Source: Candidatus Aenigmatarchaeota archaeon (lineage in GTDB: Archaea > Aenigmatarchaeota > Aenigmatarchaeia > JACPZZ01). Taken from it: a stretch of 64,000 bases of DNA. Each line of letters opens with the position of its first letter. Position 1 is the stretch's first letter. The notes under the pieces were generated by a model. It was not told the origin of the DNA. It ran no database searches and worked only from the letters and a program-made list of their open reading frames with translations. The position numbers and the translations under genes are program-made. The stretch is from NCBI GenBank assembly GCA_016180965.1, contig JACPAF010000001.1, positions 10,111-74,110 on the forward strand, written 5' to 3'. Positions 6,328 through 56,563 of this stretch are shown here, piece by piece.

Positions 6328-6367
6328 AACTGAAACAGATGCATACCAATAGCATCTGTTTCTAGTT
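6328..6367. repeat. tRNA-linked bulged palindromic hairpin (family copy)
   Basis: AACTGAAACAGATGC-ATACCAATA-GCATCTGTTTCTAGTT. The 3' end lies 5 nt (GCGAC) before tRNA-Lys +1. Confidence 0.8.
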
Positions 6368-8646: not shown

Positions 8647-9657
8647 ATGGCAAAACGCATACAACCTGAATACGCAAAAGAATATTGGAATGTTTTGCAA
8701 AGAGGTTTATTTTTTGAAAGTTCCATGCCTGAGATATGGGAATTTGAAAATCTGCAGGAATCCAATGATTGGATGAAAAAACATCACGCGGTTAAAAAAC
8801 GTGTATCTCTGGGCTTTCTTAAGCCCGCGATAACTTTTCAGTATGAACCGATGCCGTCCGCAATACCGGGCGAATCCAGCTTCATGTTACCGGCAACGGA
8901 AAAAGAAGTCCTGATGGCCAGGGTTTTGTACCAAAACGGCAAATTATCAGAAGAGGCCATCATGCAAAGAAATTTTAAACACAAAGAAGTTTTTTCCGGC
9001 CAATTGATACTTATTCCCACAGACGGCGCAGAAACTGCTGTCAGACACCTGGAAAGCGGCGGTTACCATGTACCATCAACGGCGATGGGAAGGAAAATCG
9101 GAATAATACACGAACTGTGCGAGCATGCAGCAACTCACATGAATCCTTCTTACACATTTGTAGTAAACTCCAAACTTGAGCGGGCGCATGCGCTTTCGCA
9201 AAATCCCAACGCGGATCAGGATTATGCAATACTTGAAGGTGCGGCTGCGCATGCGGCACAAGGCCACAGGCATACGATGGTAAACATGATAGAGACGTGG
9301 GCGTTGGACCAGTTTGGCGAAGATGGTCGTAAAATTGTGCGGGCTCAAAACATGGGCGTTCTCAATATGTTTGCTGATATTTTTAAAAAATACAAAACCC
9401 CCGAAGACATCAAGAACAACTACGGAGTTTACGTGGGTGAAATGATGGCATTTATGTCGTCGTTCCACGAATACACACTATTAGGCCAGCTTCTAACTGA
9501 ACCTGCGTACAAAGGCGGCGTTAGGAATGCCGCTGATGAGCACATAAGAGGCGCTGTGTGGAGAATGTCGCATGAACAGCTCCAAGACTTACAGGCAAGA
9601 TCAACAAAATATATGGAAACCAGAGGTTTTAGAAATGTGACGCCCGGAAAAAATTGA
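8647..9657 (+). CDS. Hypothetical protein
   Basis: 336-aa ORF. No confident family assignment. Confidence 0.5.
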   Translation: MAKRIQPEYAKEYWNVLQRGLFFESSMPEIWEFENLQESNDWMKKHHAVKKRVSLGFLKPAITFQYEPMPSAIPGESSFMLPATEKEVLMARVLYQNGKLSEEAIMQRNFKHKEVFSGQLILIPTDGAETAVRHLESGGYHVPSTAMGRKIGIIHELCEHAATHMNPSYTFVVNSKLERAHALSQNPNADQDYAILEGAAAHAAQGHRHTMVNMIETWALDQFGEDGRKIVRAQNMGVLNMFADIFKKYKTPEDIKNNYGVYVGEMMAFMSSFHEYTLLGQLLTEPAYKGGVRNAADEHIRGAVWRMSHEQLQDLQARSTKYMETRGFRNVTPGKN

Positions 9658-11064
9658 TTATAATTTCTTTACCATGTACGCGCCTTCCAAGGCGTAGCCG
9701 AGTTTCCTATAATATTCCCGCGCTCCAACGCCTGAAATGACTGCGATCTTTTCCATGTTGTTTTCTTTTGAAATTTTTTCCGCCTCTTCCAATAATTTTT
9801 TACCGAAGCCGCGGTGTTGGAATTGGTCTGGATCGAAGCTGTTACCTATACCGGTTTCTTTTCCGAATACGTGGATCTCACGAACCAATGAAGTCGCAGG
9901 TGTTATCTCCGGCCTGAAAGGGCGGGACGGGAATCGCAGACGCAATAAACCCAATAATATGTCGTTCTTCGCGTCCTCGAAGCTCAAAAATATTTCATGC
10001 CCGCCAGATGCCTGATAGTCTGTTCTCGTCAATTTTATTTCATTTTCGTCGATATGCTTTCCGTGCAACAAATTGTAACCGACTTCACGGCACCTTGTGC
10101 ATACACATTTTTGATTGTCCTGTTTCATCCGGGCTTTAACTGCGTCGCGTAAGTGCGAATATTTCGTACCGCCTACCACATACTCGGCGGGTATGTCGCG
10201 CATCACACGGGATATTCTCGCATAGCGCGGAACTATAAGTTTCAATTTTGCCAGCAATTCTATCAACTCGTCATTGGTATAGGCGTAATGTTTATCCTCA
10301 TTAAACCATTGCTGCAATTCCGTATTTTCCAAAACAAGGCAAGGATAAATTTTCACACCGTCCGGCCGTAAATCCGGTTTTTCAAATAAAATTTTAAACA
10401 TTTCCAAGTCTTTTTTTAAATCGGACCCGGGCAGGTTGCACATGTAATGGTAATAGACTTTGAATCCAGAGTCTTTCAACAATTTCGTGGACTCTATTAC
10501 GTCCTTAACAGTGTGGCCGCGTTTGGTCAATTCGTAGTTTTCATCGTCTGGAATTTGCACGCCCAATTCAACTCGTGTGGCGCCGAAACTTAACATTTGG
10601 TTTATCTGGTATTCAAGCGCCCAATCGGGCCGCGTTTCGATGCACATCGCCACACAGCGATTGTCTGCGGTTTCATTGTAATTTTTCGCGTCTTCAAGCG
10701 ATGCAGAAACGAAGCCGTTCAACCCGTCGTAACAGCCTTTGATGAAATCGTGGCGGTAATTTATGGGAGTGGCCATGAACGTTCCGCCCATCACAATAAT
10801 TTCGACTTTGTCCGTTATGTGGCCCATCGATTTTAACGCATTTACACGCGACTCAACTTGCTTGTATGGGTCGTAAGCGTCACGCATTGCGCGCATTACG
10901 ACCGGAGATTTAGGCAAATAGCTTTTAGGCGTGGGTATCTCCTTGTCAACCCCGCCCGGACAATAAATGCATTTACCCGGGCATGGAAGCGGTTTCGTCA
11001 TTACAGCTACTATGCTCACGCCGGATATTGTGCGGACTTTCTTTTTAACATTCAACTCGATCAT
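9658..11064 (-). CDS. elp3: Elp3-type radical SAM/GNAT tRNA U34 (c)m5U-forming enzyme
   Basis: 468 aa. Radical-SAM cluster CPGKCIYCPGG. C-terminal GNAT (QHRGFGKKLLEEAE). Overall archaeal Elp3 architecture. Confidence 0.85.
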   Translation of the reverse strand: MIELNVKKKVRTISGVSIVAVMTKPLPCPGKCIYCPGGVDKEIPTPKSYLPKSPVVMRAMRDAYDPYKQVESRVNALKSMGHITDKVEIIVMGGTFMATPINYRHDFIKGCYDGLNGFVSASLEDAKNYNETADNRCVAMCIETRPDWALEYQINQMLSFGATRVELGVQIPDDENYELTKRGHTVKDVIESTKLLKDSGFKVYYHYMCNLPGSDLKKDLEMFKILFEKPDLRPDGVKIYPCLVLENTELQQWFNEDKHYAYTNDELIELLAKLKLIVPRYARISRVMRDIPAEYVVGGTKYSHLRDAVKARMKQDNQKCVCTRCREVGYNLLHGKHIDENEIKLTRTDYQASGGHEIFLSFEDAKNDILLGLLRLRFPSRPFRPEITPATSLVREIHVFGKETGIGNSFDPDQFQHRGFGKKLLEEAEKISKENNMEKIAVISGVGAREYYRKLGYALEGAYMVKKL

Positions 11065-11767: not shown

Positions 11768-11816
11768 ATAACCTTGTCTGTTTAAGAAAAGGTTAATCAA
11801 AATATATACAATCGGT

Positions 11817-14844: not shown

Positions 14845-14881
14845 GAAACGGACGCATACACAATGACGTCCGTTTCTAGTT
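14845..14881. repeat. tRNA-linked bulged palindromic hairpin (family copy)
   Basis: GAAACGGACG-CATACACAATGA-CGTCCGTTTCTAGTT, ending 6 nt before tRNA-Thr +1. Confidence 0.75.
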
Positions 14882-18356: not shown

Positions 18357-18409
18357 CTTATTAATATTTCTGAAGCAAACAGATGCTAAGTAAACTGAAT
18401 CATCGGTGG

Positions 18410-18490
18410 CTAGAAACATACGCTTAACAGCTAGAAGCATACCGTATACTGTATCGGTATGCTTCAGTTTACGACGCGTATGTTTCAGTT
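18410..18490. repeat. Nested pair of family hairpins upstream of tRNA-Leu
   Basis: Outer CTAGAAACATACGC...GCGTATGTTTCAGTT encloses inner CTAGAAGCATACCGTATACTGTATCGGTATGCTTCAGTT (18431-18469). Confidence 0.8.
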
Positions 18491-18512
18491 TCTCGATGAT
18501 TCTAACTGTAAC

Positions 18513-18733
18513 GCGGGGGTAGCCAAGCCCGGTCAAACTTGAGTGATGAGGTTAAGAAAACTGGCGCAACAACAAACTGACACATACATAGTATGTGTCT
18601 GGTTGCAATGCGCCTGTCTGAACAACCAATGACTAGAGGCGTCAGACTCAAGTTGAACTTTAGAAAAAAGTTTGATAGAAGAGGGAAATCTGATCTCCTA
18701 GCGAGTTCGTCGGTTCAAATCCGGCCCCCCGCA
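18513..18733 (+). tRNA. tRNA-Leu-CAA: tRNA-Leu(CAA) with D-loop intron (approx 18538-18635/7) and 37/38 intron (18653-18687)
   Basis: Exons join to GCGGGGGTAGCCAAGCCCGGTCAAA(GA)GGCGTCAGACTCAAGATCTGATCTCCTAGCGAGTTCGTCGGTTCAAATCCGGCCCCCCGCA, a typical archaeal class II tRNA-Leu. The D-loop intron has BHB core GTCA(18532-35)/TGAC(18630-33) with 3-nt bulges. Confidence 0.8.
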
Positions 18734-18821
18734 CTTTCCTTTCACTGAAAAAGCCATATTTAAACCTTGCAGAAACTCATTATTCAGTGAAAACTCAGAT
18801 AGAGTTGCGGAATTGGTGTCC

Positions 18822-19904
18822 ATGAAAGCATACCTAGGCTATTCGGTTGTCGGCGTGTTTGCGTTTAACCCAGCCGGCGCGCTATTGGACAAGGAGTTTT
18901 TCAAGAAAGACGCGAAACAGATCTCCATCAAATTAAACAACGTAAAAAACGAATTCCTGGACGAAGAACTTGTATTACTTAGAAGACTTGCAAAGAAAGG
19001 CGTAAACGAATTTTTCGGTGCATATCCCAAATCAGGCGAGTTCCAAATTGACCGCGATCCCGAATCTTTGGGCGAAAACAAAGCCAAAGGCGTTTTTCGT
19101 GAAATTGCGCTCACGGATAAGTGGGTTGTTTCGCAGGCCGAATTAAATAAAATCCTGTCAAGCGTCGGATCTGAGAGTTCCAAAGAAGAACTGCGCAACG
19201 TAGAAAAGGATAAAATAGGCATGCGCGTTGTCGGAATGATAGACGAGTTCAGCAGGAACATAAATACGCTTTCAGAACATTTGCGCGAGTGGTACGGTCT
19301 TTACTTCCCGGAGATCAACGGGCTGCTGAAGGACAATGAAAAATTCGTAATTTTCGTGGCGGATAAGACATTGCGCGGAAATTTTGAGCGCGACGGCAAG
19401 AAGTTAGACATAGAAACCGCCGGCATGGAATTCGACGAGAATGATTTAGAAAGCGTGAAACAAGCCGGTTTGACATTAAAACAAATGTATGTTGAGCGCA
19501 GGAATTTGGAAAATTATCTTGAAATACTGGGCAAAAAAATAATGCCGAATATGTCTGCAGTCGCAGGCGCATTGTTAGCGTTCAGGCTAGTATCACAGGC
19601 GGGCGGGTTGGATAAGATTGTAAAACTACCGTCGTCCACAATACAATTGCTCGGTGCCGAGAAAGCTTTATTCAGGTTTTTAAAGAAGCAGGGCAAGGCT
19701 CCGAAACACGGCATAATTTTCTACCATCCTGCCGTAATTTCAGCGCCGATACCAATACGCGGAAAAATAGCGCGTATTGTTGCGTCGAAAATAACCATGG
19801 CGGCAAGGATTGATTTCTATTCCGGCAACGACAAAAGTGCGGCTATGAAAGAAGAGTTGAACCATCTGGTAAATAATGCTTTGGCGCATTTTAGGGAAAA
19901 GTAG
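18822..19904 (+). CDS. nop5: Nop5 (Nop56/58) C/D box sRNP protein
   Basis: About 360 aa. NOP domain (LLGAEKALFRFLK...PKHGIIFYHP). Immediately upstream of fibrillarin. ATG at 18822; the track ORF starts at a TTG at 18813. Confidence 0.9.
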   Translation: MKAYLGYSVVGVFAFNPAGALLDKEFFKKDAKQISIKLNNVKNEFLDEELVLLRRLAKKGVNEFFGAYPKSGEFQIDRDPESLGENKAKGVFREIALTDKWVVSQAELNKILSSVGSESSKEELRNVEKDKIGMRVVGMIDEFSRNINTLSEHLREWYGLYFPEINGLLKDNEKFVIFVADKTLRGNFERDGKKLDIETAGMEFDENDLESVKQAGLTLKQMYVERRNLENYLEILGKKIMPNMSAVAGALLAFRLVSQAGGLDKIVKLPSSTIQLLGAEKALFRFLKKQGKAPKHGIIFYHPAVISAPIPIRGKIARIVASKITMAARIDFYSGNDKSAAMKEELNHLVNNALAHFREK

Positions 19905-19912
19905 TTGGTCAG

Positions 19913-20569
19913 ATGAAGTTAAAGGAAATTTTTCCGGGAGTCTTCCGTATAGACGGCCAGCTGGCTACAAAAAACCTGGTTAATGGAAGATCGTATTCCG
20001 AAAAAATAATAAAAATCAACGGCGAAGAGTACAGGACCTGGAACCCTGAAAAATCCAAAGCTGCTGCAGCAATTGAACGCGGGATAAAAAATTTCCCGAT
20101 AAATAAAGGCTCAAAAATCCTATATCTCGGGATTGCACAAGGCCAGACGGCTTCTTATTTTTCCGACATAATAGGCAACGACGGAATAATTTACGGGGTC
20201 GAATTTTCGGCGCGCGCGGTTAGCGATCTTGTCATCGCGTGTGAAAAAAGGGGAAATATAGTCCCCATAAAAGCGGACGCACGCAAGCCCGAGGATTATT
20301 CCTGGGTCGAAAAGGTCGACGTAATCTACGAAGATGTCGCGGATTCGGAACAAGTCGCTATATTGCTAAGGAACGTTGAGGCGTTCCTGAAAAAGGGCGG
20401 TTATGCAATGATAGGCATAAAGTCGAGAAGCATAGACGTAACGAAAGACCCAAAAAAGATTTTCGAAGAATCCCTGTCTGCCATAAAGGAAAAGATGGAA
20501 ATACTTGACTATGTTACTCTCGATCCGTTTGAAGTCGATCACGCATTTATAGTATGCAAATTAAGTTGA
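19913..20569 (+). CDS. flpA: Fibrillarin-like rRNA/tRNA 2'-O-methyltransferase
   Basis: 218 aa. EYRTWNP..SKAAAAI, ILYLGIAQGQTASY, VYGVEFS motifs. Confidence 0.9.
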   Translation: MKLKEIFPGVFRIDGQLATKNLVNGRSYSEKIIKINGEEYRTWNPEKSKAAAAIERGIKNFPINKGSKILYLGIAQGQTASYFSDIIGNDGIIYGVEFSARAVSDLVIACEKRGNIVPIKADARKPEDYSWVEKVDVIYEDVADSEQVAILLRNVEAFLKKGGYAMIGIKSRSIDVTKDPKKIFEESLSAIKEKMEILDYVTLDPFEVDHAFIVCKLS

Positions 20570-28194: not shown

Positions 28195-28280
28195 ACTGAA
28201 GCATACCGTATACTGAATAGGAAACCTTGGTTTCCTATTTGAGAAAACCGTAGGTTTTCTCAATATCGGCATGCTTCTGG
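28195..28280. repeat. Free-standing composite hairpin element (family arms enclosing two extra hairpins)
   Basis: ACTGAAGCATACCGTATAC...ATATCGGCATGCTTCTGG arms enclose ATAGGAAACC-TTGG-TTTCCTAT and GAGAAAACC-GTAG-GTTTTCTC. Lies between divergent ileS and the PilT-like ATPase, with no tRNA nearby. Confidence 0.7.
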
Positions 28281-30736: not shown

Positions 30737-30770
30737 GGAAAAAATTAGTATTTAACCGCACGCGATCTAG

Positions 30771-30928
30771 CTAGAAATATGTGTTGACAGTAGCACATAT
30801 TTCAGTTAGTAGCTGAAAACAGTCACATACAAGATGTGACTGTTTTAGTTGTAGCTAGAAACATATGAATACCAATTGCATATGTTTCAGTTAGTTACAG
30901 CTAGACTCATACTTCGTATGAGTCAGTT
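30771..30928. repeat. Tandem array of four family hairpins directly upstream of tRNA-Arg
   Basis: H1 30771-30807, H2 30813-30850 (opposite bulge polarity), H3 30855-30892, H4 30901-30928. Flanks AG|CTAGA / CAGTT are conserved, stems differ but stay complementary. H4 ends 7 nt before tRNA +1. Confidence 0.85.
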
Positions 30929-30935
30929 TACAACA

Positions 30936-31051
30936 GGATCCGTAGCTCAGCCTGGACAGAGCAGCAGCCTCCTAACGAGCTTTTCCAAAAAGCTCGACCA
31001 AAAGAGAATGGAGATAGTTGAAGGTCGCGGGTTCAAATCCCGTCGGATCCG
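30936..31051 (+). tRNA. tRNA-Arg-CCT: tRNA-Arg(CCT) with canonical 37/38 intron (30975-31015, 41 nt)
   Basis: GGATCCG..GCAGC-CTCCTA|intron|A-GTTGA..GCGGG-TTCAAAT-CCCGT-CGGATCC-G. BHB core CTCC/GGAG. Confidence 0.85.
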
Positions 31052-39526: not shown

Positions 39527-40162
39527 GTGTGCCCGAATAATTCTATCAAACTTGATCCCAACAAGGACGTACTAAAAGCTAGATTGTGCGGTTTTTTGGC
39601 TGCCGACGGCAGCGTTTTCATAAGAAAGGAGACCAGAACAGGAAAAATTCACCACTCTATGAGATTTTACCCTGACAACTTAGTACTAGCTCAACTTTTC
39701 AATGACGTGCTAAAAGGCGTTTACGGCAGAGAGGCGGCGATAAAGAGTATGGGAAATTATTACGCTCTATCTTTAACTAGCAAACAAGCTGTCACAGATC
39801 TTTTATCGATAGCCAGTTTCACGTCCAAAGGTTGGACATTTCCTGAAACCATTGTTACCAAAGATGCAAAAATCGAGTGGCTAAGAGCTTATTTTGATTG
39901 TGATGGTTATGTTGGTAAAAAATACATCCAGCTGCAATCGGTCAATGAAAACGGTATAAAAGTGATACAAAAACTGTTAGAAGATTTCGGAATAGAGTCC
40001 AAAATATACGATTATACGAGAAAGAACAAGTCCTGGAACATAAATTATCTGCTGAACATAAACAAGAGGGAAATGCGTATTAAATTTTTGAGAGAAATAG
40101 GGTTCAATCACCCATTAAAAAGGAAGAAATTGGAAAGTTTAATCAATGCCGAGGTCGCATAA
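39527..40162 (+). CDS. Free-standing double-motif LAGLIDADG homing endonuclease-like protein
   Basis: 211 aa, GTG start. Two LAGLIDADG motifs (LCGFLAADGSVF, LRAYFDCDGYVG). The last 15 nt overlap the 5' end of tRNA-Ser. Confidence 0.75.
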   Translation: MCPNNSIKLDPNKDVLKARLCGFLAADGSVFIRKETRTGKIHHSMRFYPDNLVLAQLFNDVLKGVYGREAAIKSMGNYYALSLTSKQAVTDLLSIASFTSKGWTFPETIVTKDAKIEWLRAYFDCDGYVGKKYIQLQSVNENGIKVIQKLLEDFGIESKIYDYTRKNKSWNINYLLNINKREMRIKFLREIGFNHPLKRKKLESLINAEVA

Positions 40163-40320
40163 CCAGGTCAGTGCACCAGATTAAAAAAGGTGATTCTCGA
40201 AAACTGGCGGGCGCAAACAGCTAGAAGCAACAGTAAACCGAAACATGTCATAGACATGTTTCAGTCTGAACCTGCTTCAGTTGGCGATTGCCCATGAGGG
40301 TTCAAATCCCTCCCTCGGCG
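40148..40320 (+). tRNA. tRNA-Ser-CGA: tRNA-Ser(CGA) with 30/31 mini-intron (40180-40194) and 73-nt hairpin insertion in the variable arm (40214-40286)
   Basis: GCCGAGG-TC-GCAT..GTGC-A-CCAG|15 nt|T-CTCGAAA-ACTGG-CGGGCG|73 nt|ATTGCCCAT-GAGGG-TTCAAAT-CCCTC-CCTCGGC-G. Discriminator G. The mini-intron has BHB core CACC/GGTG. Confidence 0.7.
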
Positions 40321-40527: not shown

Positions 40528-40911
40528 ATGATAGCTGTTGTCGGCATTGTAGAGAATAACGGCAGGATACTGGTCGGAAAAAAGGTTTCCGGAAACAGTT
40601 TTCTTGCAGGCAAGTGGCACATACCAGGAGGCAAAGTTTTGCCCGGCGAAACGGATGAAATTGCGTTAAAGCGCGAGATGAAAGAGGAATGCGGAATAGA
40701 TGTTTCCGTAGGACGTTTTCTGGACGAATTTTACGAACCTGTCGCAGATATGCGTGCGAAATGGTTTTTGTGCTCTTGCGATGATGACAAATTAAAACCC
40801 GGCGGTGATTTGGCTGATGCCAAATGGGTTGATAAAAAAGACGCAATGGAAATCTGCGATAAAGACGCAATCGCGCGCTGGCCACGCAAAATCAAACGGT
40901 TTTTTGGTTAA
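40528..40911 (+). CDS. NUDIX hydrolase
   Basis: Start at the ATG at 40528. Nudix box GGKVLPGETDEIALKREMKEECG. Confidence 0.85.
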   Translation: MIAVVGIVENNGRILVGKKVSGNSFLAGKWHIPGGKVLPGETDEIALKREMKEECGIDVSVGRFLDEFYEPVADMRAKWFLCSCDDDKLKPGGDLADAKWVDKKDAMEICDKDAIARWPRKIKRFFG

Positions 40912-40988
40912 GCTTTTTATCAAAAAGGTTATTTTGGTTAAGCTTTTCAGGAAAAAGGTTATTTGGTTAAGCTTTTTATTAAAAAATT
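40904..40988 (+). repeat. Tandem direct repeat, about 30 nt x 2.8
   Basis: TTGGTTAAGCTTTTTATCAAAAAGGTTATT / TTGGTTAAGCTTTTCAGGAAAAAGGTTAT / TTGGTTAAGCTTTTTATTAAAAAATT. Each unit has a CTTTTT..AAAAAG hairpin. Lies between convergent genes. Confidence 0.8.
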
Positions 40989-40990
40989 CT

Positions 40991-41824
40991 TCATTCCCAA
41001 AATTCCTTGATTATTTCCTCGGATATCCGCGTTATGACGCGCTCAGGCACGAAAATTTCCATTGAAATGGTCTTGCCGTATTTTATTTTTTTCAATTCTT
41101 TCACGGTCCTGCGGAAATCTATTGACGCGATCCCGACCGGCAGGTGCTCGTCCATTTTCCCGTGGTTGTCGTGCATGTGTATGTGCTGGATGCGTTTACC
41201 GAATTTTTTGATGTGGTTCGAAATAGATTTCATGCCTCCGCCTATGAACGCATGGCCGATGTCAAGATTCACAGCGAGCCCGTCGACTTTTGAAATTATT
41301 TTTTGGAAGTCCTTTATCGATGACATTTCTGTGGTGTTTTCCAACATCACGACCATCGAATCACCGGCGTAATCCACCAGCTTCTTCATGTTCTCGATGT
41401 AGTTTGATATAACCTCTTTCAGCGTGCCGCGATCCGATAGCATCATGCTCTGCGAATGTGCGTGGAAAGTTATTTTTTCTATATTTATCCTCTTTCCCGC
41501 GTCTATGACCTTTTTACATTCTTCTAACCACGCGTCGCGCACTATTTCGTGCGGGCTGCCAAGATCTATCCACCACGCCGCGTGCCCGAGCGCGAACATC
41601 CTATGTTTTTTGATTATCCTGTTTATTTTGCCCGCCCTATTCGCGATTATTTTCGGCGACCCTTCCGGCTCCTCAATCCCGATTTCTACGAAATCAAAAT
41701 TAAGCGCCGCGATTTCACGTATTTCCTGCATCAAGTCCAATGAGGGATTTGTAGTTGTGCCGAACTTTGGCAGGCCTGGTTGATTGAAACGCATCTTGGA
41801 TGCGTTTCTGTCTGTCTCTACCAT
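40991..41824 (-). CDS. Sugar phosphate isomerase/epimerase (xylose-isomerase-like TIM barrel)
   Basis: 277 aa. FVEIGIEEPE, ITFHAH, LENT, NLDIGHAF, IHMHDNHG metal-site pattern. Confidence 0.7.
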   Translation of the reverse strand: MVETDRNASKMRFNQPGLPKFGTTTNPSLDLMQEIREIAALNFDFVEIGIEEPEGSPKIIANRAGKINRIIKKHRMFALGHAAWWIDLGSPHEIVRDAWLEECKKVIDAGKRINIEKITFHAHSQSMMLSDRGTLKEVISNYIENMKKLVDYAGDSMVVMLENTTEMSSIKDFQKIISKVDGLAVNLDIGHAFIGGGMKSISNHIKKFGKRIQHIHMHDNHGKMDEHLPVGIASIDFRRTVKELKKIKYGKTISMEIFVPERVITRISEEIIKEFWE

Positions 41825-41888: not shown

Positions 41889-41978
41889 AACAGACGCTTG
41901 GAGTATGCGTCTGTTTCGGTCAACCGCTGAATCATATGCATTTGGGAACTAGACTCGTATGATAGTATGAGTCTTGTT
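41889..41978. repeat. Two family hairpins upstream of tRNA-Val(CAC)
   Basis: AACAGACGC-TTGGAGTAT-GCGTCTGTT (41889-41915) and CTAGACTCGTATGA-TAG-TATGAGTCTTGTT (41949-41978). The latter ends 5 nt (ACGAC) before tRNA +1. Confidence 0.75.
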
Positions 41979-42066: not shown

Positions 42067-42102
42067 GAAGCATACCGATACAATCATAGGCATGTTTCTA
42101 GT
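42067..42102. repeat. Family hairpin (imperfect) downstream of tRNA-Val(CAC)
   Basis: GAAGCATACCGATA-CAATC-ATAGGCATGTTTCTAGTT. A further CTGAAACTTTCTT-CA-AAGAAAGTTTGTT hairpin lies at 42109-42136. Confidence 0.65.
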
Positions 42103-42759: not shown

Positions 42760-42971
42760 CTGGCAGACTGATGCATATCTCGGATATGCGTCTGATCGTA
42801 ACCGCCCTTTTGTGATCAAAAGCGCTGGCGGAAAAAAATAATTATACGAATGCGTGTAAACAGGAAACGTTAGGCTGTGGGAAAGCAAGTTTTGTAATAC
42901 AAAACTGCTGCAGTTTATCTGAAGATAAACTTGCAAACCTCAGGTTTTCGTGGTCGACTGACGCAGAGGTA

Positions 42972-43012
42972 AACTGAAGCATATCGATAGTGCATACGGT
43001 ATGCTTCCAGTT
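42972..43012. repeat. tRNA-linked bulged palindromic hairpin (family copy)
   Basis: AACTGAAGCATATCG-ATAGTGCATA-CGGTATGCTTCCAGTT, ending 5 nt (GTGAC) before tRNA-Ala +1. Confidence 0.8.
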
Positions 43013-43017
43013 GTGAC

Positions 43018-43106
43018 GGGCCGGTAGATCAACGGTAGATCGCCACATTGGCATTGGAAAGAGACCAAAATTGTGGAGGCTTCGGGTTCGAATCCCGACC
43101 GGTCCA
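43018..43106 (+). tRNA. tRNA-Ala-GGC: tRNA-Ala(GGC) with canonical 37/38 intron (43054-43070, 17 nt)
   Basis: GGGCCGG/CCGGTCC with G3:U70. CCACA-TTGGCA|intron|T-TGTGG. BHB core TTGG/CCAA. Confidence 0.9.
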
Positions 43107-43309
43107 AATAACCTTTTAAAAAAAGGTTAATCAAAACTTAAGCTTGACCAAAATTCGTAAGACCCAAGCAAAGCTCATAAAACTGCTGCAACAATTCTAA
43201 TTTGCCCGATGAAGACACCCAATGGGCGGACTGAGGGCGCTATTTTTGCGTACCAGACACAAAACATGTTTTATTAAGAGTTTTGGATAAAAGTTAATCA
43301 GGGAGCCTT

Positions 43310-47611: not shown

Positions 47612-49063
47612 ATGAAATTGGCTCTATTTGGTATCATTTTGGCTGTGATAGTTTCTGGTTGTACGGGTACAGGTGATTCAGGCAACACAGGAACAGGCGG
47701 ATCGGTTATCATAAAATCATTTTCTGCCGACGAAACAAATTTACAAGGCAACGACAGGACAACGCTTTCAACTGAAATTATCAACACAGGAGACTCAAAA
47801 GCCACCGCTGTTAAAATACAATTATTAGATTTGGATACGGCTTGCGCGCAACCTTCATGCGATTCGACGGAAACACAGTGGGGGTTGTCCAGCGGAAAGA
47901 CGAGCGATGTACTCACCGATTTGAGGATAAACACGCCGGGTGAAGAGGCCATAGCAAAACAATACAACTGGCGCGTGCAATCGCCAAAATTGCCGGCTAA
48001 TTTGCCACAGACCTACGATGCCAAAGCGAGAGTTTCATTCGGATATTCGACCACAGCTATCAAACAAATAAAAATTGTCACCCTATCTGAATACCAGAGG
48101 TTAAAAACGAACGGACAGACGTTGCCTGTTACTACAGCACAGCCGTCTAACGGGCCTTTAAAGATCGACGTAAGAGTGGCAGAGCCCGTCAGGATTGAAG
48201 AGGGTTCCACTACGTTCTTGCTTGTCATTGAAGTTACTAACCTGATTGGCGGAACCACGTTCCTGGCCGATAACCCGAACGACGTGTCAAAATGGAACCT
48301 GGCCAATTTGAAATTAACGCTTCCTTCAGGGCTTGCGATGGCAGAAACGAGCGGGGATTGCGCAGCCATCACAAGCAGCGTCACCATCGAGCTTTCAAAG
48401 GGCAAAAGTTACAAAACGCAATGCGAAGTCAAGACCACAACAAACATCCCGGTTTCGGTGGACAAGACCGTCAACGTTAAAGCTGATTACGGGTACTTTG
48501 TCGAATCCAAACTGTCCGTGCCTATATCGGTTATAGGAAAATCCAATTATGTCCCGCCTTCGGGCGGCGGTGCACCAGGACAGGCCGGAACAGGCACAGT
48601 AACACCTCCCGCGTCCGGCGGCTCAACTGCACCGGATACCGAACCGCCTAACACGGTTAGAAATATACAAGTCCAAAAATTCGCAGGACAACCCGGAACA
48701 GCGAGCGCGGGCAAGTGGCAATACACAATAAGTTTCCTCGAGCCATCCGACAATGTGGGCGTTGCGGGTTTTGAAATATATGTAGGCACAATCCAGCCAG
48801 CCACAGGAACTTGGAATACTGCTACTCTGGATGCCAGCAATGAAGTTAAGAAACAAGGCCTTGCATCCAATATACCGCTCGGTTCGAGAACACCTCAAGG
48901 AGGAACTGTGGAATCATTCCCACCCAACGGCGTGGCTAGATTGCTTTTAGATCCGAATACATCATATTGGATAGGCATTCTTGCTGTGGATGCCAGTGGA
49001 AACAGGGGAGACTTGTCAACATCCGCGGGTTCTGTAATCCAAATACAAACAGGTTCTTTCTAG
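47612..49063 (+). CDS. Putative lipoprotein with CARDB-like domains, Pro/Gly linker and FN3-like C-terminal domain
   Basis: 483 aa. MKLALFGIILAVIVSGC signal. STEIINTGDSKATAVKIQLLD. Linker PPSGGGAPGQAGTGTVTPPASGG. C-terminal VRNIQVQ...FEIYVG...YWIGILAVDASGNRG. Confidence 0.6.
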   Translation: MKLALFGIILAVIVSGCTGTGDSGNTGTGGSVIIKSFSADETNLQGNDRTTLSTEIINTGDSKATAVKIQLLDLDTACAQPSCDSTETQWGLSSGKTSDVLTDLRINTPGEEAIAKQYNWRVQSPKLPANLPQTYDAKARVSFGYSTTAIKQIKIVTLSEYQRLKTNGQTLPVTTAQPSNGPLKIDVRVAEPVRIEEGSTTFLLVIEVTNLIGGTTFLADNPNDVSKWNLANLKLTLPSGLAMAETSGDCAAITSSVTIELSKGKSYKTQCEVKTTTNIPVSVDKTVNVKADYGYFVESKLSVPISVIGKSNYVPPSGGGAPGQAGTGTVTPPASGGSTAPDTEPPNTVRNIQVQKFAGQPGTASAGKWQYTISFLEPSDNVGVAGFEIYVGTIQPATGTWNTATLDASNEVKKQGLASNIPLGSRTPQGGTVESFPPNGVARLLLDPNTSYWIGILAVDASGNRGDLSTSAGSVIQIQTGSF

Positions 49064-50337
49064 AATTTTTGTTTTGCGAATTCGCCCAGGCCTTTCTGCC
49101 CTGATTTTTGCATCTCAAACGAGCCTTCGAACAACGGAACTCCGTAGACGCCGTCGTAGCCCGGCTTAAATTTTAGCTCCCCATTACGCGATTTTATTAT
49201 TGCGTTTGCGATTTTTTCGTGCGTGATCTTTTTTAACTCGTTTTCAGGGACGTTCATCAACACGTTTAACTCTGTGCCAAATTGCGAGATTATTTTATCG
49301 TGTTCTTCGGTGACTTTTTTAGAGTATAATGCGTTGACACCGGTGACGTGCGATATTATCTCATACAACGGCAATAATGTTTTGAATGGTATCGCGTTTT
49401 TAGGAACAAAACCAACAGGACGGTCGGCTAATTGTTCAACACGACTGAGAACGCCTATTGTTAATCCCCGTTTGCAGCGCGGGCAAATACCATTTAATTT
49501 TTTTGTTTCAGACGGCTCTAAAGAAACGTTACAGTCTTTGTGGCCATCTAAATGGTATTTTCCATAATTCGGGTCGCACTCAATTGTATATAAAAACTTT
49601 TCCTTGTCCTTGTTTTTTATTGCATCGAAGATTTTGTTGTATGTGGGGTTTTCAATATCAAATACGTTCGCCTCTCTTCCTAACCTCCAAGGCCATGGTG
49701 AATGTGCGTCGGAATTTGAGATTAATGCAAACTTGTCCAAACTTGAAATGTTCCAGCACATCGCGGGATCCGCTGATAGGCCTGTTTCGATCGCGAAAAT
49801 GTTTTTTGTCTGATCCTGAAAACATTCTTCCACTGAGTTAAAACCGGATTTCGAACCGAAAATTGAAAACCATGGCGTAAACGAATGGGCTGGTATGATA
49901 AATGCATCTTTAGATATTGACACCACCAGTTCTGTAAATTCCGGACAGGTTATGTTTGTTAATATCGGACGTCCGTCTGCGGAAAGGTTTCCGTATCTGC
50001 TTAATTTTTCATTAATTTGGTCTACGATTTCGAAACTTGGAGCGAAAATCATGTTGTGGACTTTTTTGCTCACGCCGTTGACATAGTAAATCAGCGAAAC
50101 TTCCGATGTCAGCATAAAAGCTGTTTTCGTTTTGTTGTCCGTGAACAATCCCGTGCCATTAATTTCCTTCAATGAAGATTTCAAATCTTCCAAATGTTTC
50201 GGGTGTGTGAAATCGCCTGTTCCGAGAATGTCCAAGCCTTTCGTTTCTGCGAATTTTCCAAGCGTGTGTATGTTCATCTGGGGTGATGTGGCGCGGCTGT
50301 ATTTCGAATGTATCTGGAGGTCTGCGATAATTTTCAT
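49060..50337 (-). CDS. endoQ: Endonuclease Q-like PHP-domain nuclease with zinc ribbon
   Basis: Start moved to the ATG at 50337 (MKIIADLQIHSKYSRATSPQM...GTGDFTHP). CPRCKRGLTIGVLSRVEQL zinc ribbon. The 37 extra N-terminal codons in the track ORF overlap tRNA-Ile. Confidence 0.7.
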   Translation of the reverse strand: MKIIADLQIHSKYSRATSPQMNIHTLGKFAETKGLDILGTGDFTHPKHLEDLKSSLKEINGTGLFTDNKTKTAFMLTSEVSLIYYVNGVSKKVHNMIFAPSFEIVDQINEKLSRYGNLSADGRPILTNITCPEFTELVVSISKDAFIIPAHSFTPWFSIFGSKSGFNSVEECFQDQTKNIFAIETGLSADPAMCWNISSLDKFALISNSDAHSPWPWRLGREANVFDIENPTYNKIFDAIKNKDKEKFLYTIECDPNYGKYHLDGHKDCNVSLEPSETKKLNGICPRCKRGLTIGVLSRVEQLADRPVGFVPKNAIPFKTLLPLYEIISHVTGVNALYSKKVTEEHDKIISQFGTELNVLMNVPENELKKITHEKIANAIIKSRNGELKFKPGYDGVYGVPLFEGSFEMQKSGQKGLGEFAKQKF

Positions 50338-50372
50338 AGAGAATATTCCTTTGCCAGATGTAAAAATAGAAG

Positions 50373-50574
50373 TGGGCCCGACCGGATGATCGGCTGACAC
50401 ATCGCAGCTAGGCACACACAAGATGTGTGCCGATTTGCCGTGTGTCAAGCTTTCGAACCGGCGACCATGCCGTTGCTATCCATTGCAATTACGGCGTCTA
50501 CGCAGCTTAGTTTCGCAAGCAAATGCTTGCGGGCCTTATAAGACCGTCGCTCTACCAAGCTGAGCTACAGGCCC
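50373..50574 (-). tRNA. tRNA-Ile-TAT: tRNA-Ile(TAT) with three predicted introns (38/39: 50496-50535; variable loop: 50467-50489; T-loop 59/60: 50387-50451)
   Basis: Reverse complement gives GGGCCTG-TA-GCTC-AGCTTGGTA-GAGC-G-ACGGT-CTTATAA|40 nt|GCCGT-A|23 nt|GGTC-GCCGG-TTCGAA|65 nt|T-CCGGT-CGGGCCC-A. BHB cores: TTAT/GTAG (two G.U), GCCG/CGGC (perfect), TTCG/CGAT (3 of 4). Confidence 0.7.
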
Positions 50575-50586
50575 ACTTTGTCGACC

Positions 50587-50622
50587 GAAGCATACCGATA
50601 CAGTATACGGTATGCTTCTAGT
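50587..50622. repeat. Family hairpin just 5' of tRNA-Ile (minus-strand sense)
   Basis: GAAGCATACCGATACAGTATACGGTATGCTTCTAGTT. The reverse complement of 50588-50622 is identical over 35 nt to 18431-18465. An additional ACTGGCG..CGCCAGT hairpin lies at 50633-50657. Confidence 0.85.
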
Positions 50623-50731
50623 TGTAACTAAAACTGGCGATTTTTGAATGCGCCAGTTTCTATTTACCACGCTTTAATCATTTTTTACGCAAGCTTAAAA
50701 AGATAAAAGCACGCCGTCTCATTGTAAATGT

Positions 50732-52166: not shown

Positions 52167-52667
52167 AATTCATTAATTATGCTGCCGACGATAAAAATAC
52201 TTGCTACATGGTTATGGTAAAACTTTATTAGCGTATGGGATAAATTAATCTTGAATCAGCTTGGAGAGTTTTTCTGATTTCACGATCGAAATACCTCTCC
52301 AAGCTGGCTATTTTTCGCAGGCATAAATTTAAAAGCAAAGAATTGCATAGATTATAAGTTCGGTCGTGAAAGTTGGTGCGTATACACCAGCTAAGGATTG
52401 TCAGAAACAAGCGTGACAAGAGCCATAAAAGGTAGTCGTCATGTTCATTGGTTTCCCAGATCTTGAATATTCGTAAAACTGATCAGTTCTGGTTAACTCC
52501 GATGAAAAAATAGGTTTCCTCCCGGACTCCTATGCAGGATGGCTACCTGTGGCCACTCAAACCCGATTGGATTAAAGTGGGTTTAATCTGATAATACTAA
52601 GTATTAATTGAAATTCTATTTAAAGTTTTAGTTAAAGTTAAACTTTAATTCTTAGTTTAAATTCAAT
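52167..52667. other. About 500 nt non-coding, hairpin-rich gap (candidate structured ncRNA or degraded mobile DNA)
   Basis: No credible ORF in six frames. 12-bp stem CAGCTTGGAGAG...CTCTCCAAGCTG (about 52258-52306). TTGGTG-CGTATA-CACCAG, TCCT-ATGC-AGGA and AAACCC...GGGTTT hairpins. Confidence 0.35.
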
Positions 52668-53860
52668 TTAAATTCGTTTTTGCTTCAACAACCCCATCCA
52701 TCGATTCGTACCGAGTCTTAGATCTATACCCGACGCCGCCGCCGGTGTCATCCCTAACGCCATGTGCGGACGGATGAAGTTGTAGTAGTTGCGGAAACCA
52801 ACCGAGAAGACCGCCTCACCGCCCTTGAACCCACGCATAACCTTATCTCGCTCTCGGAACGTGCCGTGAAACCGCTCTACGAGGTTGTTGTCAGGCTTCT
52901 TGCGGATGCTCTCCAGCCTGATATGCTGAACCCTATCGGGGTGTCGTCCGTGAGCATGATATTCGTCCTTTAGGGCTTGGTAGTAGCTTTGCAGACCATC
53001 CGTAACTACGAACTTTGGTAGTGTGCCAGCCGTCTCTTTGGCTAGCCTTAAAATCTGGCTCGCCTCACCTATTGTCCGTCCGTTGGTTACGTTGTTGGCT
53101 ATCAAAAATCGTGTCTTCTCGTCAACCATGTTCCAGACCCATCTCTCCCTGCCTTCGGACTTGATAGCCTGCTCATCCAGATGCCATGCTTCGCTTAATC
53201 TCGGTTTTAGGTCTTTGGTGTAGTCGTTGATCTTCTCTGTGAACTTGGTTATCCATTGCCTTACGGTTTCGTGGCTGACGACCACACCGTAGAACTGCTT
53301 TAGCGTGTCCGAGATCTCACGCAATGACAAACCCTTGTAATACAAATCCATAGCCAGCATTGCTATTTTGCTGTCAACGCTAAGGCGAGCGAAAACGCTG
53401 TCTTTGATAAACGTCTTTTTGCAGTCGAGGCATTGAAACCTCTGCTTAACACCATTGGTTGTTTTCCTGTTTCCGTTTTTCTTAATGTTGGTTGATTTGC
53501 AGTATTCGCATTTCGTTTTATCCTCGTCCGCAAACGGTATTGTGCTGTCGTCAACTTTCGCCCTCATTTTCAATAAAAACTCAACAGCATGGATGTGTTT
53601 GCATTTTTCTTTCCTATGAATAAAGTCGGGACATTCACACAGCCAACGCTTCTTTAGGACTACTTTATATTTCCTGTCCGAGTTCTGCGAAGGGACTAAA
53701 AACGTCTCCTTGTCAATAATCCTTGGCGTGTCGCCTTTGGCTATAATAGCGTAGCCCCTGATCTTTCTTGGGTCATCTTTAGGTTGTCTATTTGTTAACA
53801 TCATGTTAACTATTATGTAGGCTTAACTATTTAAACCTATGTTAACAAGACTTTAACATG
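52580..53860 (-). mobile_element. Insertion sequence (boundaries approximate)
   Basis: Single transposase gene. Weak candidate terminal repeats GGTTTAAT.. (52580) versus the reverse complement of ..ATTTAAACC (53838). 9-nt direct repeat CTATTTAAA at 52616 and 53827. Ends not resolved. Confidence 0.45.
52668..53804 (-). CDS. IS6-family-like DDE transposase with N-terminal SWIM and zinc-ribbon fingers
   Basis: 378 aa. CECPDF..CKHIH (SWIM-like), CEYC..CLDC ribbon. DDE core WHLDEQ..., FVVTDGLQSY, NNLVERFHGTFRERDKVMRGFK. Confidence 0.8.
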   Translation of the reverse strand: MMLTNRQPKDDPRKIRGYAIIAKGDTPRIIDKETFLVPSQNSDRKYKVVLKKRWLCECPDFIHRKEKCKHIHAVEFLLKMRAKVDDSTIPFADEDKTKCEYCKSTNIKKNGNRKTTNGVKQRFQCLDCKKTFIKDSVFARLSVDSKIAMLAMDLYYKGLSLREISDTLKQFYGVVVSHETVRQWITKFTEKINDYTKDLKPRLSEAWHLDEQAIKSEGRERWVWNMVDEKTRFLIANNVTNGRTIGEASQILRLAKETAGTLPKFVVTDGLQSYYQALKDEYHAHGRHPDRVQHIRLESIRKKPDNNLVERFHGTFRERDKVMRGFKGGEAVFSVGFRNYYNFIRPHMALGMTPAAASGIDLRLGTNRWMGLLKQKRI

Positions 53861-54110
53861 GAAACGAGCGACACGATTGAGAAAGGGATAACGGTAACAA
53901 TAAGAGACAGAGTTAAGAACAGATCAAAGTCGTTTACGGTTTATTCGGACGATCTGAACAAGGTATATAAGATTTTGAAGGATGCCGCGGAGAAGGCGGA
54001 ATAATCTTATTTTTCCAGGAAAAATTTAGCGAACAATACTATCAACACACCTATGATTATCATTACAAAATATGGATCCCTGAATAACAACATTACTAAA
54101 TCAACAATGG

Positions 54111-54789: not shown

Positions 54790-56436
54790 ATGGTAAATGC
54801 AACAATGGGACAGATTGGCGGACAGCCTGTATTGATATTGCCCGAAGGCGCGCTGCGCTCGACTGGAAAAGATGCACAGCGCAATAATATTGCTGCTGCG
54901 AAAGCTGTCGGTGATGCTATACGAACTACGCTAGGCCCGCGAGGAATGGATAAGATGCTTGTTGACTCATTAGGCGATGTCGTTATCAGCAACGACGGCG
55001 CCACGATTTTGAGCGAGATGGAAATTGAACATCCCGCTGCAAAAATGATGGTTGAAATTTCAAAGACGCAAGACGAAGAAGTCGGCGACGGCACTACAAC
55101 TGTTGTAGTTTTAGCTGGCACAATGTTAAAGAAGGCTGAAGAACTTCTAGACCAAGATGTCCATCCTACTGTCATAACGAAAGGTTACCGCACAGCAAAG
55201 GAAAGGGCGTTGGAAGTTGTGAGAAACATTTCGAAATCTATCTCGATCAACGACGAAGAGAAGCTTGTGCAAATCGCAACAACAGCGATGAACAGCAAGG
55301 CTGTCGGAGAAAACACGGACAAATTGGCGCGGGTGATTGTCAAAGCTGTCAAAGAAATTTCCGAAACAACTGATGGAAAAACTTTGATCGACGTTGAAAA
55401 TGTAAAGCTTGAAAAGAGGCAGGGCGGCGGGATCGTAGACACGGAATTGATAAAAGGAATTGTCATCGACAAAGATGTGGTCCATCCGTCGATGCCGAAA
55501 AAATCCGAGAATGCAAAAATAGCATTATTGGACGTTGCGCTTGAAGTCAAGGAGTTGGAAACTGACGCCGAGATAAGGATAACGTCGCCGGAGCAGATGC
55601 AATCATTCCTTGCAGAGGAAGAGAGAATGCTAAAGGATATGGTTGAGAAAATCGCCGCTACCGGAGCGAATGTTGTTTTCTCCCAGAAAGGTATCGATGA
55701 TGCTGCGCAACATTACATGGCGAAGAAAGGTATTTTGGCCTCGAGGCGGGTTAAAAAGTCTGACATGGACAAATTGGCGCGCGCCACTGGAGCGAAAGTT
55801 ACGTCAAGCATAAATGACCTGAGCTCAAGCGACCTGGGTTTCGCAGGAATTGTCGAAGAGAAAAAAGTTTCCGGCGAGCAGATGGTTTTCGTGCAGAAAT
55901 GCAAGGATCCTAAAGCGGTTACGATTTTGATACGCGGCGGTTCTGAGCATATCGTTGACGAAGTCGAGCGTGCGGTTAACGATGCTATCAAAGGCGTTGC
56001 TGCGGCTGTTGAGATGGGCAAATATGTTGCTGGGGGCGGGGCGCCCGAAGCTGAAATCGCGAGACAATTGAGAAAATTAGCAGAAAGTTTCCCTGGGCGT
56101 GAGCAGTTGGCGATAAACGCGTTCGCCGATGCCATGGAAGTAATTCCGCGCACGCTTGCAGAGAACGCGGGTTTGGATACGATCGACATGTTAGTTAAGT
56201 TGCGCGCAGAGCATGACGCAGGAAATGCGTCGGCTGGTGTGGATGTTTTGAACGGCAGGATAAGCGACATGGAAAAATTAAATGTCATTGACCCGCTGAA
56301 GACAAAGATACAGGCCATAAATTCCGCTTCGGAAGCTGCGGAAATGATATTGAGGATAGATGATGTCATTTCGGCGAGCAAGTTAAACAAGGGCGGAGGC
56401 ATGCCTGCTGGCATGCCGGACATGGGCGGGGAATAG
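54790..56436 (+). CDS. ths: Thermosome subunit (group II chaperonin)
   Basis: 548 aa. [30 protein letters not shown] motifs. GGAGG about 10 nt upstream of the ATG. Confidence 0.95.
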
Positions 56437-56563
56437 AAAACCGAAGGATTTCTATTTGAGAAAATCCAAAGATTTTCTCAAAAATGTAGTATAATTTTTA
56501 GTAATTTCCTCGTTACCCGGCGATTAATAAAGTATATATTGGTAGAAAGCAAAATCTACATTA

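Follow-up and report, generated by a model that had tools for sequence, protein, structure and literature searches.

Four tandem hairpins precede tRNA-Arg(CCT)

The stretch analyzed here (the window, 64,000 nt) is chromosomal DNA of Candidatus Aenigmatarchaeota, a DPANN archaeon from groundwater, and the subject of this work is an array of four tandem hairpins that lies between a TATA-like box and the gene for tRNA-Arg(CCT). The proteins encoded in the window are ordinary housekeeping proteins (aminoacyl-tRNA synthetases, Nop5, fibrillarin, thermosome, and others), and at least 11 tRNA genes are present, the majority of which bear introns. A neighboring PIN-ATPase-KH gene has counterparts in metagenome-assembled genomes of the phylum at 95% and at 82-87% identity, and the endonuclease Q gene (49060-50337) matches an NCBI metagenome-assembled contig of 316 kb at 100%. 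The tRNA-Arg(CCT) gene (30936-31051, + strand, 116 nt) was detected by Rfam (47.8 bits) and by ARAGORN with introns allowed, and its canonical 41-nt bulge-helix-bulge (BHB) intron at 30975-31015 was recovered by our BHB scanner, in which the strict motif is hBHBh'.

A putative promoter box, TAGTATTTAAC (30745-30756, +), follows directly on the stop codon of the upstream open reading frame (ORF) and predicts a transcription start for tRNA-Arg close to the beginning of the first hairpin, H1. All four stems are perfect Watson-Crick helices, of 10, 13, 10, and 9 bp. Counting each unit from AGCT to AGTT on the + strand, H1 (30769-30807) is composed of AGCT-A-GAAATATGTG, the loop ttgacagtag, and CACATATTTC-AGTT, with its perfect stem at 30774-30803 closing a loop of 10 nt. 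H2 (30811-30850) reads AGCT-G-AAAACAGTCACAT, acaag, ATGTGACTGTTTT-AGTT (stem 30816-30846, loop 5 nt) and is the same in L001, one of the loci of relatives that we designate by L-numbers (L001-L006 for the tRNA-Arg orthologs, L056-L060 for those of tRNA-Ile). H3 (30848-30901) has a 10-bp lower stem (GTTGTAGCTA / TAGTTACAGC), a 3-nt bulge on the 3′ side, and the apical stem GAAACATATG / CATATGTTTC (30858-30888, loop 11 nt), and H4 (30899-30928) reads AGCT-A-GACTCATAC, ttc, GTATGAGTC-AGTT (30904-30924, loop 3 nt). A preliminary description of the array had separated the units by 4-8 nt; the measured gaps are 2-6 nt between AGCT...AGTT units, or 11-15 nt when the perfect stems alone are counted. 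On the former count its distance of 7 nt between the last unit and tRNA +1 (30936) is correct and corresponds to the unpaired spacer TACAACA (30929-30935, +), the last stem ending 11 nt before +1.

The hairpins and their common junctions, as first noticed in the sequence, are well above chance. The 176 nt of the array region (30760-30935) fold as RNA at -75.6 kcal/mol, compared with -36.1 ± 3.5 kcal/mol for 200 dinucleotide shuffles (z = -11.5), none of which was as stable, and the flank pattern AGCTRGA-N16-46-YCAGTT occurs four times in the window where 0.11 occurrences are expected. The junctions pair with each other, AGCU with AGUU (one G.U included), so in each unit a variable apical stem stands over a small bulge and a lower stem. 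The fold of minimum energy places a bulged A on the 5′ side of H1 and a bulged AGU on the 3′ side of H3, above its 10-bp lower stem, and gives H2 and H4 no lower stem, which leaves no basis for the opposite bulge polarity previously ascribed to H2. The stems of H1 and H3 differ at two positions, each of them compensated. An independent Logan assembly (L052) contains the identical array, and an assembly artefact is therefore excluded. A search with Rfam 15 (gathering threshold and E<=1) matched only tRNAs in the window and nothing over the hairpins. We also dropped the idea of guides and targets: the arms of the stems match only themselves or members of the same family, and no other target was found in the window.

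The hairpins belong to a family concentrated at tRNA genes

The array is not unique: most tRNA genes of the window are preceded or interrupted by hairpins of this family. About 23 units were counted in the 64 kb, each of ~30-50 bp, with a semi-conserved lower stem (GT)AGCT / AGTT(AC), a 1-nt bulge, an apical stem of the form GAAAC-N5-8 / N5-8-GTTTC (the start may also be GAAGC or GACNC), and a loop of 3-12 nt; the base of the unit is conserved and the apical stem is hypervariable. Perfect hairpins of at least 9 bp number 22 in the window, against ~3 estimated by chance (64,000 positions x 12 loop lengths / 4^9), and most of them share the anatomy of H1-H4. Family units are found in 8 of the 9 intergenic segments that contain tRNA genes and in 1 of the 21 others (Fisher p = 1.3e-5). 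They stand singly, in tandem, or nested in one another's loops, in leaders, introns, and trailers.

Single units precede tRNA-Lys(CTT) (6332-6362, +, 10 nt before +1), tRNA-Thr(TGT) (14845-14876, +, 11 nt before +1), and the tRNA at 43018 (42976-43007, +, 10 nt before +1). Three hairpins (41786-41808, 41889-41915, and 41947-41978, all +) lie 5′ of tRNA-Val(CAC), the last of them related to H4, of which a degenerate relative also exists in the tRNA-Arg leader of L005; the 13-mer of H2, in turn, was found only at the tRNA-Arg leader of the window and its orthologs. The leader of tRNA-Leu(CAA) is a three-level nest (18397-18502, +; z = -7.6) with outer AATCATCG, middle GAAACATACGC, and inner GAAGCATACCG stems, and the leader of tRNA-Ile(TAT) has two tandem units (50587-50659, - strand, at 50587 and 50631), the proximal stem being identical to that at 18434-18465. 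Trailer copies follow tRNA-Val(CAC) (42067-42098, +, degenerate) and tRNA-Val(TAC) (42768-42794, +). Among intron copies, tRNA-Leu(CAA) has a nest of two levels in its D-loop intron (18558-18620, +) that is absent from the short intron of L020, and there are another with AGCTA-GAAGCA outside, GAAACATGTC inside, and TGCTTC-AGTT closing (40219-40282, +) in an intron of the 173-nt tRNA at 40148-40320, and two nested family-type hairpins that make up the T-loop BHB intron of tRNA-Ile(TAT) (50396-50457, -). A GAAGCATACCG hairpin with a hairpin pair of another type (the twin hairpin described below) inserted in its loop lies at 28198-28277 (+), in an intergenic region without a tRNA gene.

Across leaders, the distance from the last stem to tRNA +1 is usually 9-13 nt; the exceptions are the tRNA-Leu leader of L001 (6 nt) and that of the window (26 nt after the last GTTTC stem). 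Flanks are of two reverse-complementary types, AGCT-A-GAAAC..GTTTC-AGTT and AACT-GAAAC..GTTTC-T-AGTT, and both occur in leaders, so units lie in either orientation relative to the tRNA. The tRNAs at 11817, 17568, and 42687 have no family hairpin.

Two of the tRNA genes mentioned above are invisible to Rfam and ARAGORN because of their multiple introns. tRNA-Leu(CAA) (18513-18733, +) has two, in the D-loop and the anticodon loop, and tRNA-Ile(TAT) (50352-50578, -) has three, in the anticodon loop, the variable loop, and the T-loop. After in silico splicing, Leu(CAA) and Ile(TAT) were the commonest ARAGORN calls for these two genes.

Units turn over at orthologous loci

We compared the tRNA-Arg leaders of relatives, in which the end of the upstream ORF, the TATA-like box, and the tRNA are conserved and the content between them differs. 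That content ranges from no hairpin (L004) through a 3′ half unit (L002), one unit (L006), two units (L001), and the four units of the window to a nest of three to four levels (L003), and L005 retains a decayed H4-like remnant. The equivalent box (TAGTATTTAAC / TATATTTTAAAC / TTAATATTTTAAT / CTAATTTTTAAG), just 3′ of the stop codon, is kept in the window and in five relatives (L001, L002, L003, L005, and L006) regardless of the number of hairpins. Zero to four copies, or nests, thus follow a promoter box that is itself conserved, so the array can be dispensed with and changes quickly, and the comparison called for in the preliminary description shows copy number to vary. The multi-hairpin precursor with discrete products proposed there is not supported, since neither the number nor the order nor the identity of units is conserved, the stems have no other target in the window, the L002 leader is only 5-8 nt long (estimated from the TATA position), and L004 has no leader hairpin at all.

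Loss, decay, and insertion of units can be followed in relatives. Between the window and L001 (95% protein identity), H3 and H4 together form a clean 78-nt indel flanked by AGTT at either end, and since the more distant L005 also has an H4-like arm, the block was probably lost from L001. The first unit of L001 is a chimera, with a 5′ arm and loop like those of H3 and the 3′ arm of H1, and therefore has two stem mismatches; together with the half unit of L002 and the degenerate copies in L005 and at 42067 in the window, it is one of the decayed copies. We had considered that H3-H4 arose by tandem duplication of the H1-H2 pair, but H4 is unrelated to H2 and has its kin in the tRNA-Val leader and in L005, which is easier to reconcile with independent units. 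Units were inserted next to AGTT ends and into hairpin loops. The tRNA-Leu leader has a single hairpin in L001, and in the window the loop of that same hairpin contains two more, while L020 has a different three-level nest there. The number of hairpins in the tRNA-Ile leader goes from one in L057 to five, arranged as three tandem units, in L060, and a conserved TTTTTAAG box precedes them. Turnover at the Arg, Leu, and Ile loci means that such arrays are common and unstable in this clade. The array is not an elaborate device of tRNA-Arg, but a local pile-up of clade-specific palindromic repeats in a leader that is probably discarded.

Copies are dispersed to unrelated sites and other genomes

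Copying between unrelated sites is seen in a 32-nt unit, GAAGCATACCG-tatactgtat-CGGTATGCTTC, which is identical at 18434 and at 50587, in opposite orientation at the latter. The composite in which the loop of a GAAGCATACCG hairpin holds a twin hairpin occurs at 28198-28277 as well as in the tRNA-Arg leader of L003, AAACTGGCGC arms are shared by the tRNA-Leu intron and the tRNA-Ile leader of the window, and a sub-variant with the same C.A imperfection lies in the leader of L058 and in an intron of L060. The idea of repeated insertion at one hot spot is supported as to insertion by the varying copy number, the 78-nt indel, and the identical units at unrelated loci and in other genomes, but not as to the single spot: the family is genome-wide and occupies nearly all tRNA leaders and several introns and trailers.

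Searching public metagenomes with the exact stems returned 35 contigs, of which about 16 clearly contain this element, its flanks unchanged and its loops either identical or very similar. Metagenomic copies are often three-level nests in which the flank type alternates; some are located in tRNA leaders, trailers, or introns, and others between housekeeping genes. No transposase was found among the 10 neighbor proteins of these copies. In relatives, perfect hairpins with stems of 9 bp or more number 9-17 per ~20 kb (about one is expected) and fall into at least two families whose abundance varies by lineage. This pattern of dispersal is a hallmark of copied, selfish or neutral repeats, unlike a conserved functional leader. 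A viral origin was also considered and rejected, as the three IMG/VR matches were one unrelated palindrome of 61% GC.

Family modules form the cores of polymorphic tRNA introns

Non-canonical BHB introns that differ from one close relative to the next also have family modules as their cores. L058 and L059 lack the T-loop intron of tRNA-Ile; it consists of a single hairpin in L056 and of two nested levels in the window, and L057 and L060 have an unrelated intron of ~130 nt in its place. In the T-loop element, the lower stem GCT/AGC doubles as helix h′ of the BHB motif, in which H has one mismatch. Only L060 has an intron of 60 nt at position 29/30; it is built around a typical family hairpin, and the strict hBHBh' formed by its ends restores the anticodon stem. 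In tRNA-Leu, the D-loop intron is ~40 nt in L020 and ~100 nt in the window by virtue of the two-level nest, and in L001 it is 41 nt longer still, a 41-nt module having been gained or lost at its 5′ edge between genomes in which the neighboring PIN-ATPase-KH protein is 95% identical. BHB motifs are thus present for intron-borne copies (strict for L060 29/30, with one mismatch for the T-loop introns of the window and L056). For the leader hairpins, excision at BHB motifs was rejected: a scan of the Arg leader gave 2 strict matches, which is at chance level (1.6 in shuffles), and none of them brackets a single unit.

Several other features of these introns were recorded. Among L056-L060, the intron content of tRNA-Ile(TAT) (~9500-10000) is mosaic relative to the similarity of the neighboring endonuclease Q gene (endoQ, at 49060-50337 in the window): the variable-loop intron is present in the window, L056, L058, and L059 and not in L057 and L060, which share the large T-loop intron. 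This mosaic points to recombination between alleles of the tRNA or to introns gained and lost more than once. In tRNA-Arg(CCT), the canonical intron (30975-31015 and its counterparts in L001-L006) keeps its position and its 3′ end GGAGA(T/A)A|GTTGA; its length varies from 38 to 105 nt, as calculated from Rfam gene lengths, its interior is different in every relative, and its gains and losses are whole small hairpins.

Interpretation and alternatives

We interpret the array, with moderate confidence, as four copies of a lineage-specific, non-autonomous palindromic repeat, similar to repetitive extragenic palindromic (REP) sequences and miniature inverted-repeat transposable elements (MITEs), that accumulates where RNA processing removes it. 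Units would be copied at the DNA level; new copies landing beside the AGTT end of an existing unit would give rise to tandem arrays, and those landing inside its loop to nests, while deletion between the short AGTT repeats would remove copies. In a compact DPANN genome, copies would survive mainly in RNA that is discarded, namely the 5′ leaders, introns, and 3′ trailers of pre-tRNAs, where insertions may be tolerated because that RNA is thrown away; insertions between the promoter and the start codon of mRNAs, which are probably leaderless, would be harmful. TATA-like boxes are conserved upstream of the units, with predicted starts 0-13 nt before the first unit, so the units are probably transcribed and removed with the leader by RNase P. 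The Arg array would most likely be transcribed as a leader of ~160 nt with four independent hairpins and a short single-stranded spacer, to be cut off by RNase P, and its hairpins should not interfere with folding of the tRNA because they fold on themselves.

Several observations weigh against this interpretation. Transcription through the array is deduced from the position of the promoter, and processing by RNase P is presumed. Neither a Y1/HUH transposase nor TnpB was found in the ~45 proteins of the window (64 kb, from a contig whose length is 316 kb or more) or among the 10 neighbors of metagenomic copies. The only insertion sequence (IS) of the window, an IS6/IS240-like element (52668-53804), has AT-rich ends unrelated to GAAAC/GTTTC, for which reason we also discarded the idea of a MITE derived from the resident IS. 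No unambiguous target-site duplication was seen: the H3-H4 block is flanked by AGTT, but AGTT is the element's own end as well, and the 41-nt module in tRNA-Leu of L001 has no duplication at its flanks. All four Arg units are in one orientation, and the stems vary between copies yet remain perfectly paired. The sense strand of leaders usually folds better than the antisense strand (-75.4 versus -57.0 kcal/mol for Arg, -33.9 versus -24.5 for Val, and -53.2 versus -47.7 for Leu), and in the 19 regions tested, taken together, the sense strand has 37 G.U pairs and the antisense strand 19; no such bias is seen in introns and trailers. These data point to a constraint at the RNA level or an orientation bias, which a purely selfish DNA element does not need. 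A simple account may be selection against leaders that do not fold on themselves, and a true function may also explain the bias.

One alternative is that the modules are, or derive from, mobile cores of BHB introns, and that the copies in leaders are harmless by-products. The polymorphic T-loop intron of tRNA-Ile, whose lower stem serves as helix h′, the strict motif of the 29/30 intron of L060, the sub-variants shared by leaders and introns, and the 41-nt module at the edge of the tRNA-Leu intron would all be accounted for, and intron "transposition" has been proposed for Thermoproteales (PMC4090602). We nevertheless consider it unlikely: BHB motifs around leader hairpins do not exceed those of shuffled sequences, many copies lie between protein genes far from tRNAs, and each intron has its own exon-complementary BHB tails outside the family consensus, so the modules may simply have entered the loops of mini-introns that existed before. 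Still less likely is that the hairpins are functional parts of the pre-tRNA leader that protect or time 5′ processing, offer sites for processing factors, or act as a precursor of small RNAs. Such roles agree with stable, perfect hairpins whose differences are compensated, with the folding advantage and G.U excess of the sense strand, with the usual 9-13 nt to tRNA +1, and with the strong enrichment at tRNA genes, but at orthologous leaders neither number nor order nor sequence of units is conserved, some tRNAs of the same genome do without them, units occur in both orientations, in decayed form, and away from tRNAs, and the stems match neither an Rfam family nor any other sequence of the window.

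Terminators or insulators that block read-through from the upstream gene into the tRNA seem very improbable. Some metagenomic copies do lie between convergent genes and the units end in a T-rich GTTTC/GTTTT-AGTT(T), but T-runs do not exceed four, intron copies cannot terminate, a different hairpin type (NNNNCTTTT-nnn-AAAAGNNNN) is found at the 3′ ends of genes and tRNAs, and at the Arg, Ile, Lys, Thr, and Leu loci a conserved TATA-like box lies upstream of the hairpins, which by their position therefore follow the tRNA promoter. The same boxes in orthologs led us to reject a leaderless tRNA as in Nanoarchaeum, which lacks RNase P, with a hairpin loop ~26 nt before +1 serving as TATA box; the loops are also poor TATA matches. 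Many CRISPR repeats start with GTTTC and end with GAAAC, and the junctions of the array do the same and alternate with variable segments, as would those of a degenerate mini-CRISPR-like array with repeat GTTTCAGTT..AGCTAGAAAC and palindromic "spacers". Its anatomy effectively refutes this reading, which we regard as having next to no chance of being correct: the "repeats" are degenerate and of unequal length (21-25 nt), each ~20-nt "spacer" is complementary to itself, units are also found singly and nested, and the window has no cas genes or domains.

Returning to the copied repeat that we favor, its modules may either have founded new introns or merely fill the loops of existing mini-introns. 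The first option leads to a speculative extension, to which we give a rather low probability, namely that the modules are mobile agents creating and enlarging non-canonical BHB introns of tRNA genes in this DPANN lineage. If so, a module copied at the DNA level into the body of a tRNA gene would persist where its base and tail can build a bulge-helix-bulge together with the exon, copies in leaders or trailers would survive free of this demand, and leader arrays would be the "exhaust" of active intron generation. Relatives that differ by single modules would then allow the gain of archaeal tRNA introns to be traced step by step.

Comparison with known repeats

The closest analogy for the behavior of the family appears to be with REP/REPIN elements in bacteria (PMC3733652, PMC3116915) and with the nested small dispersed repeats of cyanobacteria. 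Like REP/REPIN elements, the units are short (20-40 bp) imperfect palindromes in high copy number, are intergenic, occur singly, in tandem, or in clusters, and vary in abundance between strains, and REPs are often transcribed as RNA hairpins. REPs carry GTAG just 5′ of the stem, and a prokaryote-wide survey reported GTAG repeats only for bacterial groups (PMC3733652). The tetranucleotide stands before the stem in H2, H3, the Lys leader, and units of L006 and L060 (as GTAGCTA-GAAAC in H2, H3, L006, and L060), but not consistently, since other family units have CTAG, ACAG, or ATAG there. The present family also differs in its archaeal host, in the nesting of units in one another's loops, in its hypervariable apical stems over a conserved base, and in its concentration in pre-tRNA leaders and introns. 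REP/REPINs are mobilized by REP-associated tyrosine transposases (RAYTs, of the IS200/IS605-type Y1 HUH class), typically flanked by the repeats; no such domain was detected in the window proteins and metagenomic neighbors searched as above.

The small dispersed repeats (SDRs) of cyanobacteria, which Elhai et al. (2008, Genome Res 18:1484) are said to have described, are reportedly very small, hairpin-forming, mobile, and nesting, and reportedly tolerated inside structured or processed RNA regions. They belong to another domain of life and differ in sequence, and the link to tRNA leaders and BHB introns is found only in the present family. To our knowledge, no transposase is associated with SDRs. 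Like MITEs, including archaeal ones, our units are non-autonomous and short, with terminal inverted symmetry and lineage-specific bursts; unlike them, they have no related autonomous IS, the ends of the only IS in the window being unrelated, no clear target-site duplication, and a far smaller size than is typical.

In Thermoproteales, near-identical short sequences at different positions of different tRNA genes are attributed to Fujishima et al. 2010 in the account of PMC4090602, which infers intron "transposition" from evidence similar to ours and gives its mechanism as unknown. As far as that account goes, the likeness lies in introns gained and lost among close relatives by a mechanism presumed to act on DNA, and the difference in that our modules are also abundant in leaders, trailers, and intergenic DNA, that leader copies have no BHB motif, and that the lineage is DPANN. 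Our literature search returned no description of such elements in DPANN archaea, which is no proof of novelty.

Standard tRNA finders fail on leaders of 100-200 nt packed with hairpins and on tRNAs whose two or three introns are filled with modules. Even in very small, streamlined DPANN genomes a family of miniature palindromic repeats proliferates, and its residence almost wholly in sequence that is processed away from RNA is a clear "safe haven" for selfish DNA in a compact genome. Added interest comes from this near-exclusive residence in the discarded parts of tRNA transcripts combined with the link to polymorphic tRNA introns: as modules sit in BHB introns that come and go, the clade offers a natural series for the gain, enlargement, and loss of tRNA introns.

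Other hairpin types and neighboring features

A second hairpin family, the twin hairpin, consists of AATAGGAAAC..GTTTCCTATT followed by TGAGAAAAYC..GRTTTTCTCAA, with the variants CATAGGAAATC / ACGAAAAYC. It is present in the window (28214-28263 and 56431-56484), in L003:12487-12535, and many times in L057-L060, and in L057-L059 it outnumbers the GAAAC family. Its settings are solitary after the thermosome gene, within the loop of a GAAGCATACCG hairpin, and in large tRNA introns of relatives. The third type, NNNNCTTTT-nnn-AAAAGNNNN (e.g., TAACCTTTTaaaAAAAGGTTA), is often followed by ATCAAAA and occurs mostly at the 3′ ends of genes and tRNAs (window 11769-11795, 40900-40977 with three copies, and 43107-43131; L006:263-283; L056:12685-12732; L060:12717-12737). 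It may be the terminator-like element of this lineage. The hairpin CGAGCTTTTccaAAAAGCTCG in the tRNA-Arg intron has the form of this third type.

The tRNA-Leu(CAA) gene lies directly upstream of the nop5-fibrillarin operon (18813-20569), and its D-loop intron (18536-18625) has a conserved, C-box-like GTGATGA at the 5′ end and CTGA/ATGA near the 3′ end. Whether this intron encodes a C/D-box sRNA is uncertain, because part of the apparent D′/D boxes is the family flank AACTGA. For the family flanks themselves, a kink-turn or C/D-box nature was rejected, since no G.A/A.G pairs follow the bulge and the CTGA in AACTGAAAC is flank consensus.

Two further tRNA genes are difficult to assign. The tRNA at 40148-40320 (+, 173 nt) has a good acceptor and T arm and was called Phe(AAA) with a 77-nt intron by ARAGORN, whereas according to Rfam the anticodon loop holds an insertion of ~80 nt and there is another of 23 nt; by eye it resembles a class II tRNA whose variable arm contains an intron. 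The 89-nt tRNA at 43018-43106 (+) was called Pro(TGG) by ARAGORN without intron search and Ala(GGC), with a 17-nt intron, when introns were searched.

ORFs similar to LAGLIDADG_3 homing endonucleases adjoin tRNA genes at places that differ by relative (window 39527-40162, +; L058:18484-19335; L060:9086-9976; L061:207-1097). The end of the window ORF reaches 15 nt into the 5′ end of the tRNA at 40148, and in L060 and L061 one such ORF lies between tRNA-Ile and endoQ. Some endoQ homologs of ~785 aa have LAGLIDADG_3 (PF14528) matches themselves, to which P0059 and P0067 add PF14890, and these domain matches suggest inteins. The IS6/IS240-like element mentioned above is a DDE transposase gene on the - strand with AT-rich palindromic stretches at its flanks (52559-52676 and 53792-53861), and fragments or copies of it are present at the syntenic place in relatives (L056:7091-7528, L060:4754-5758).

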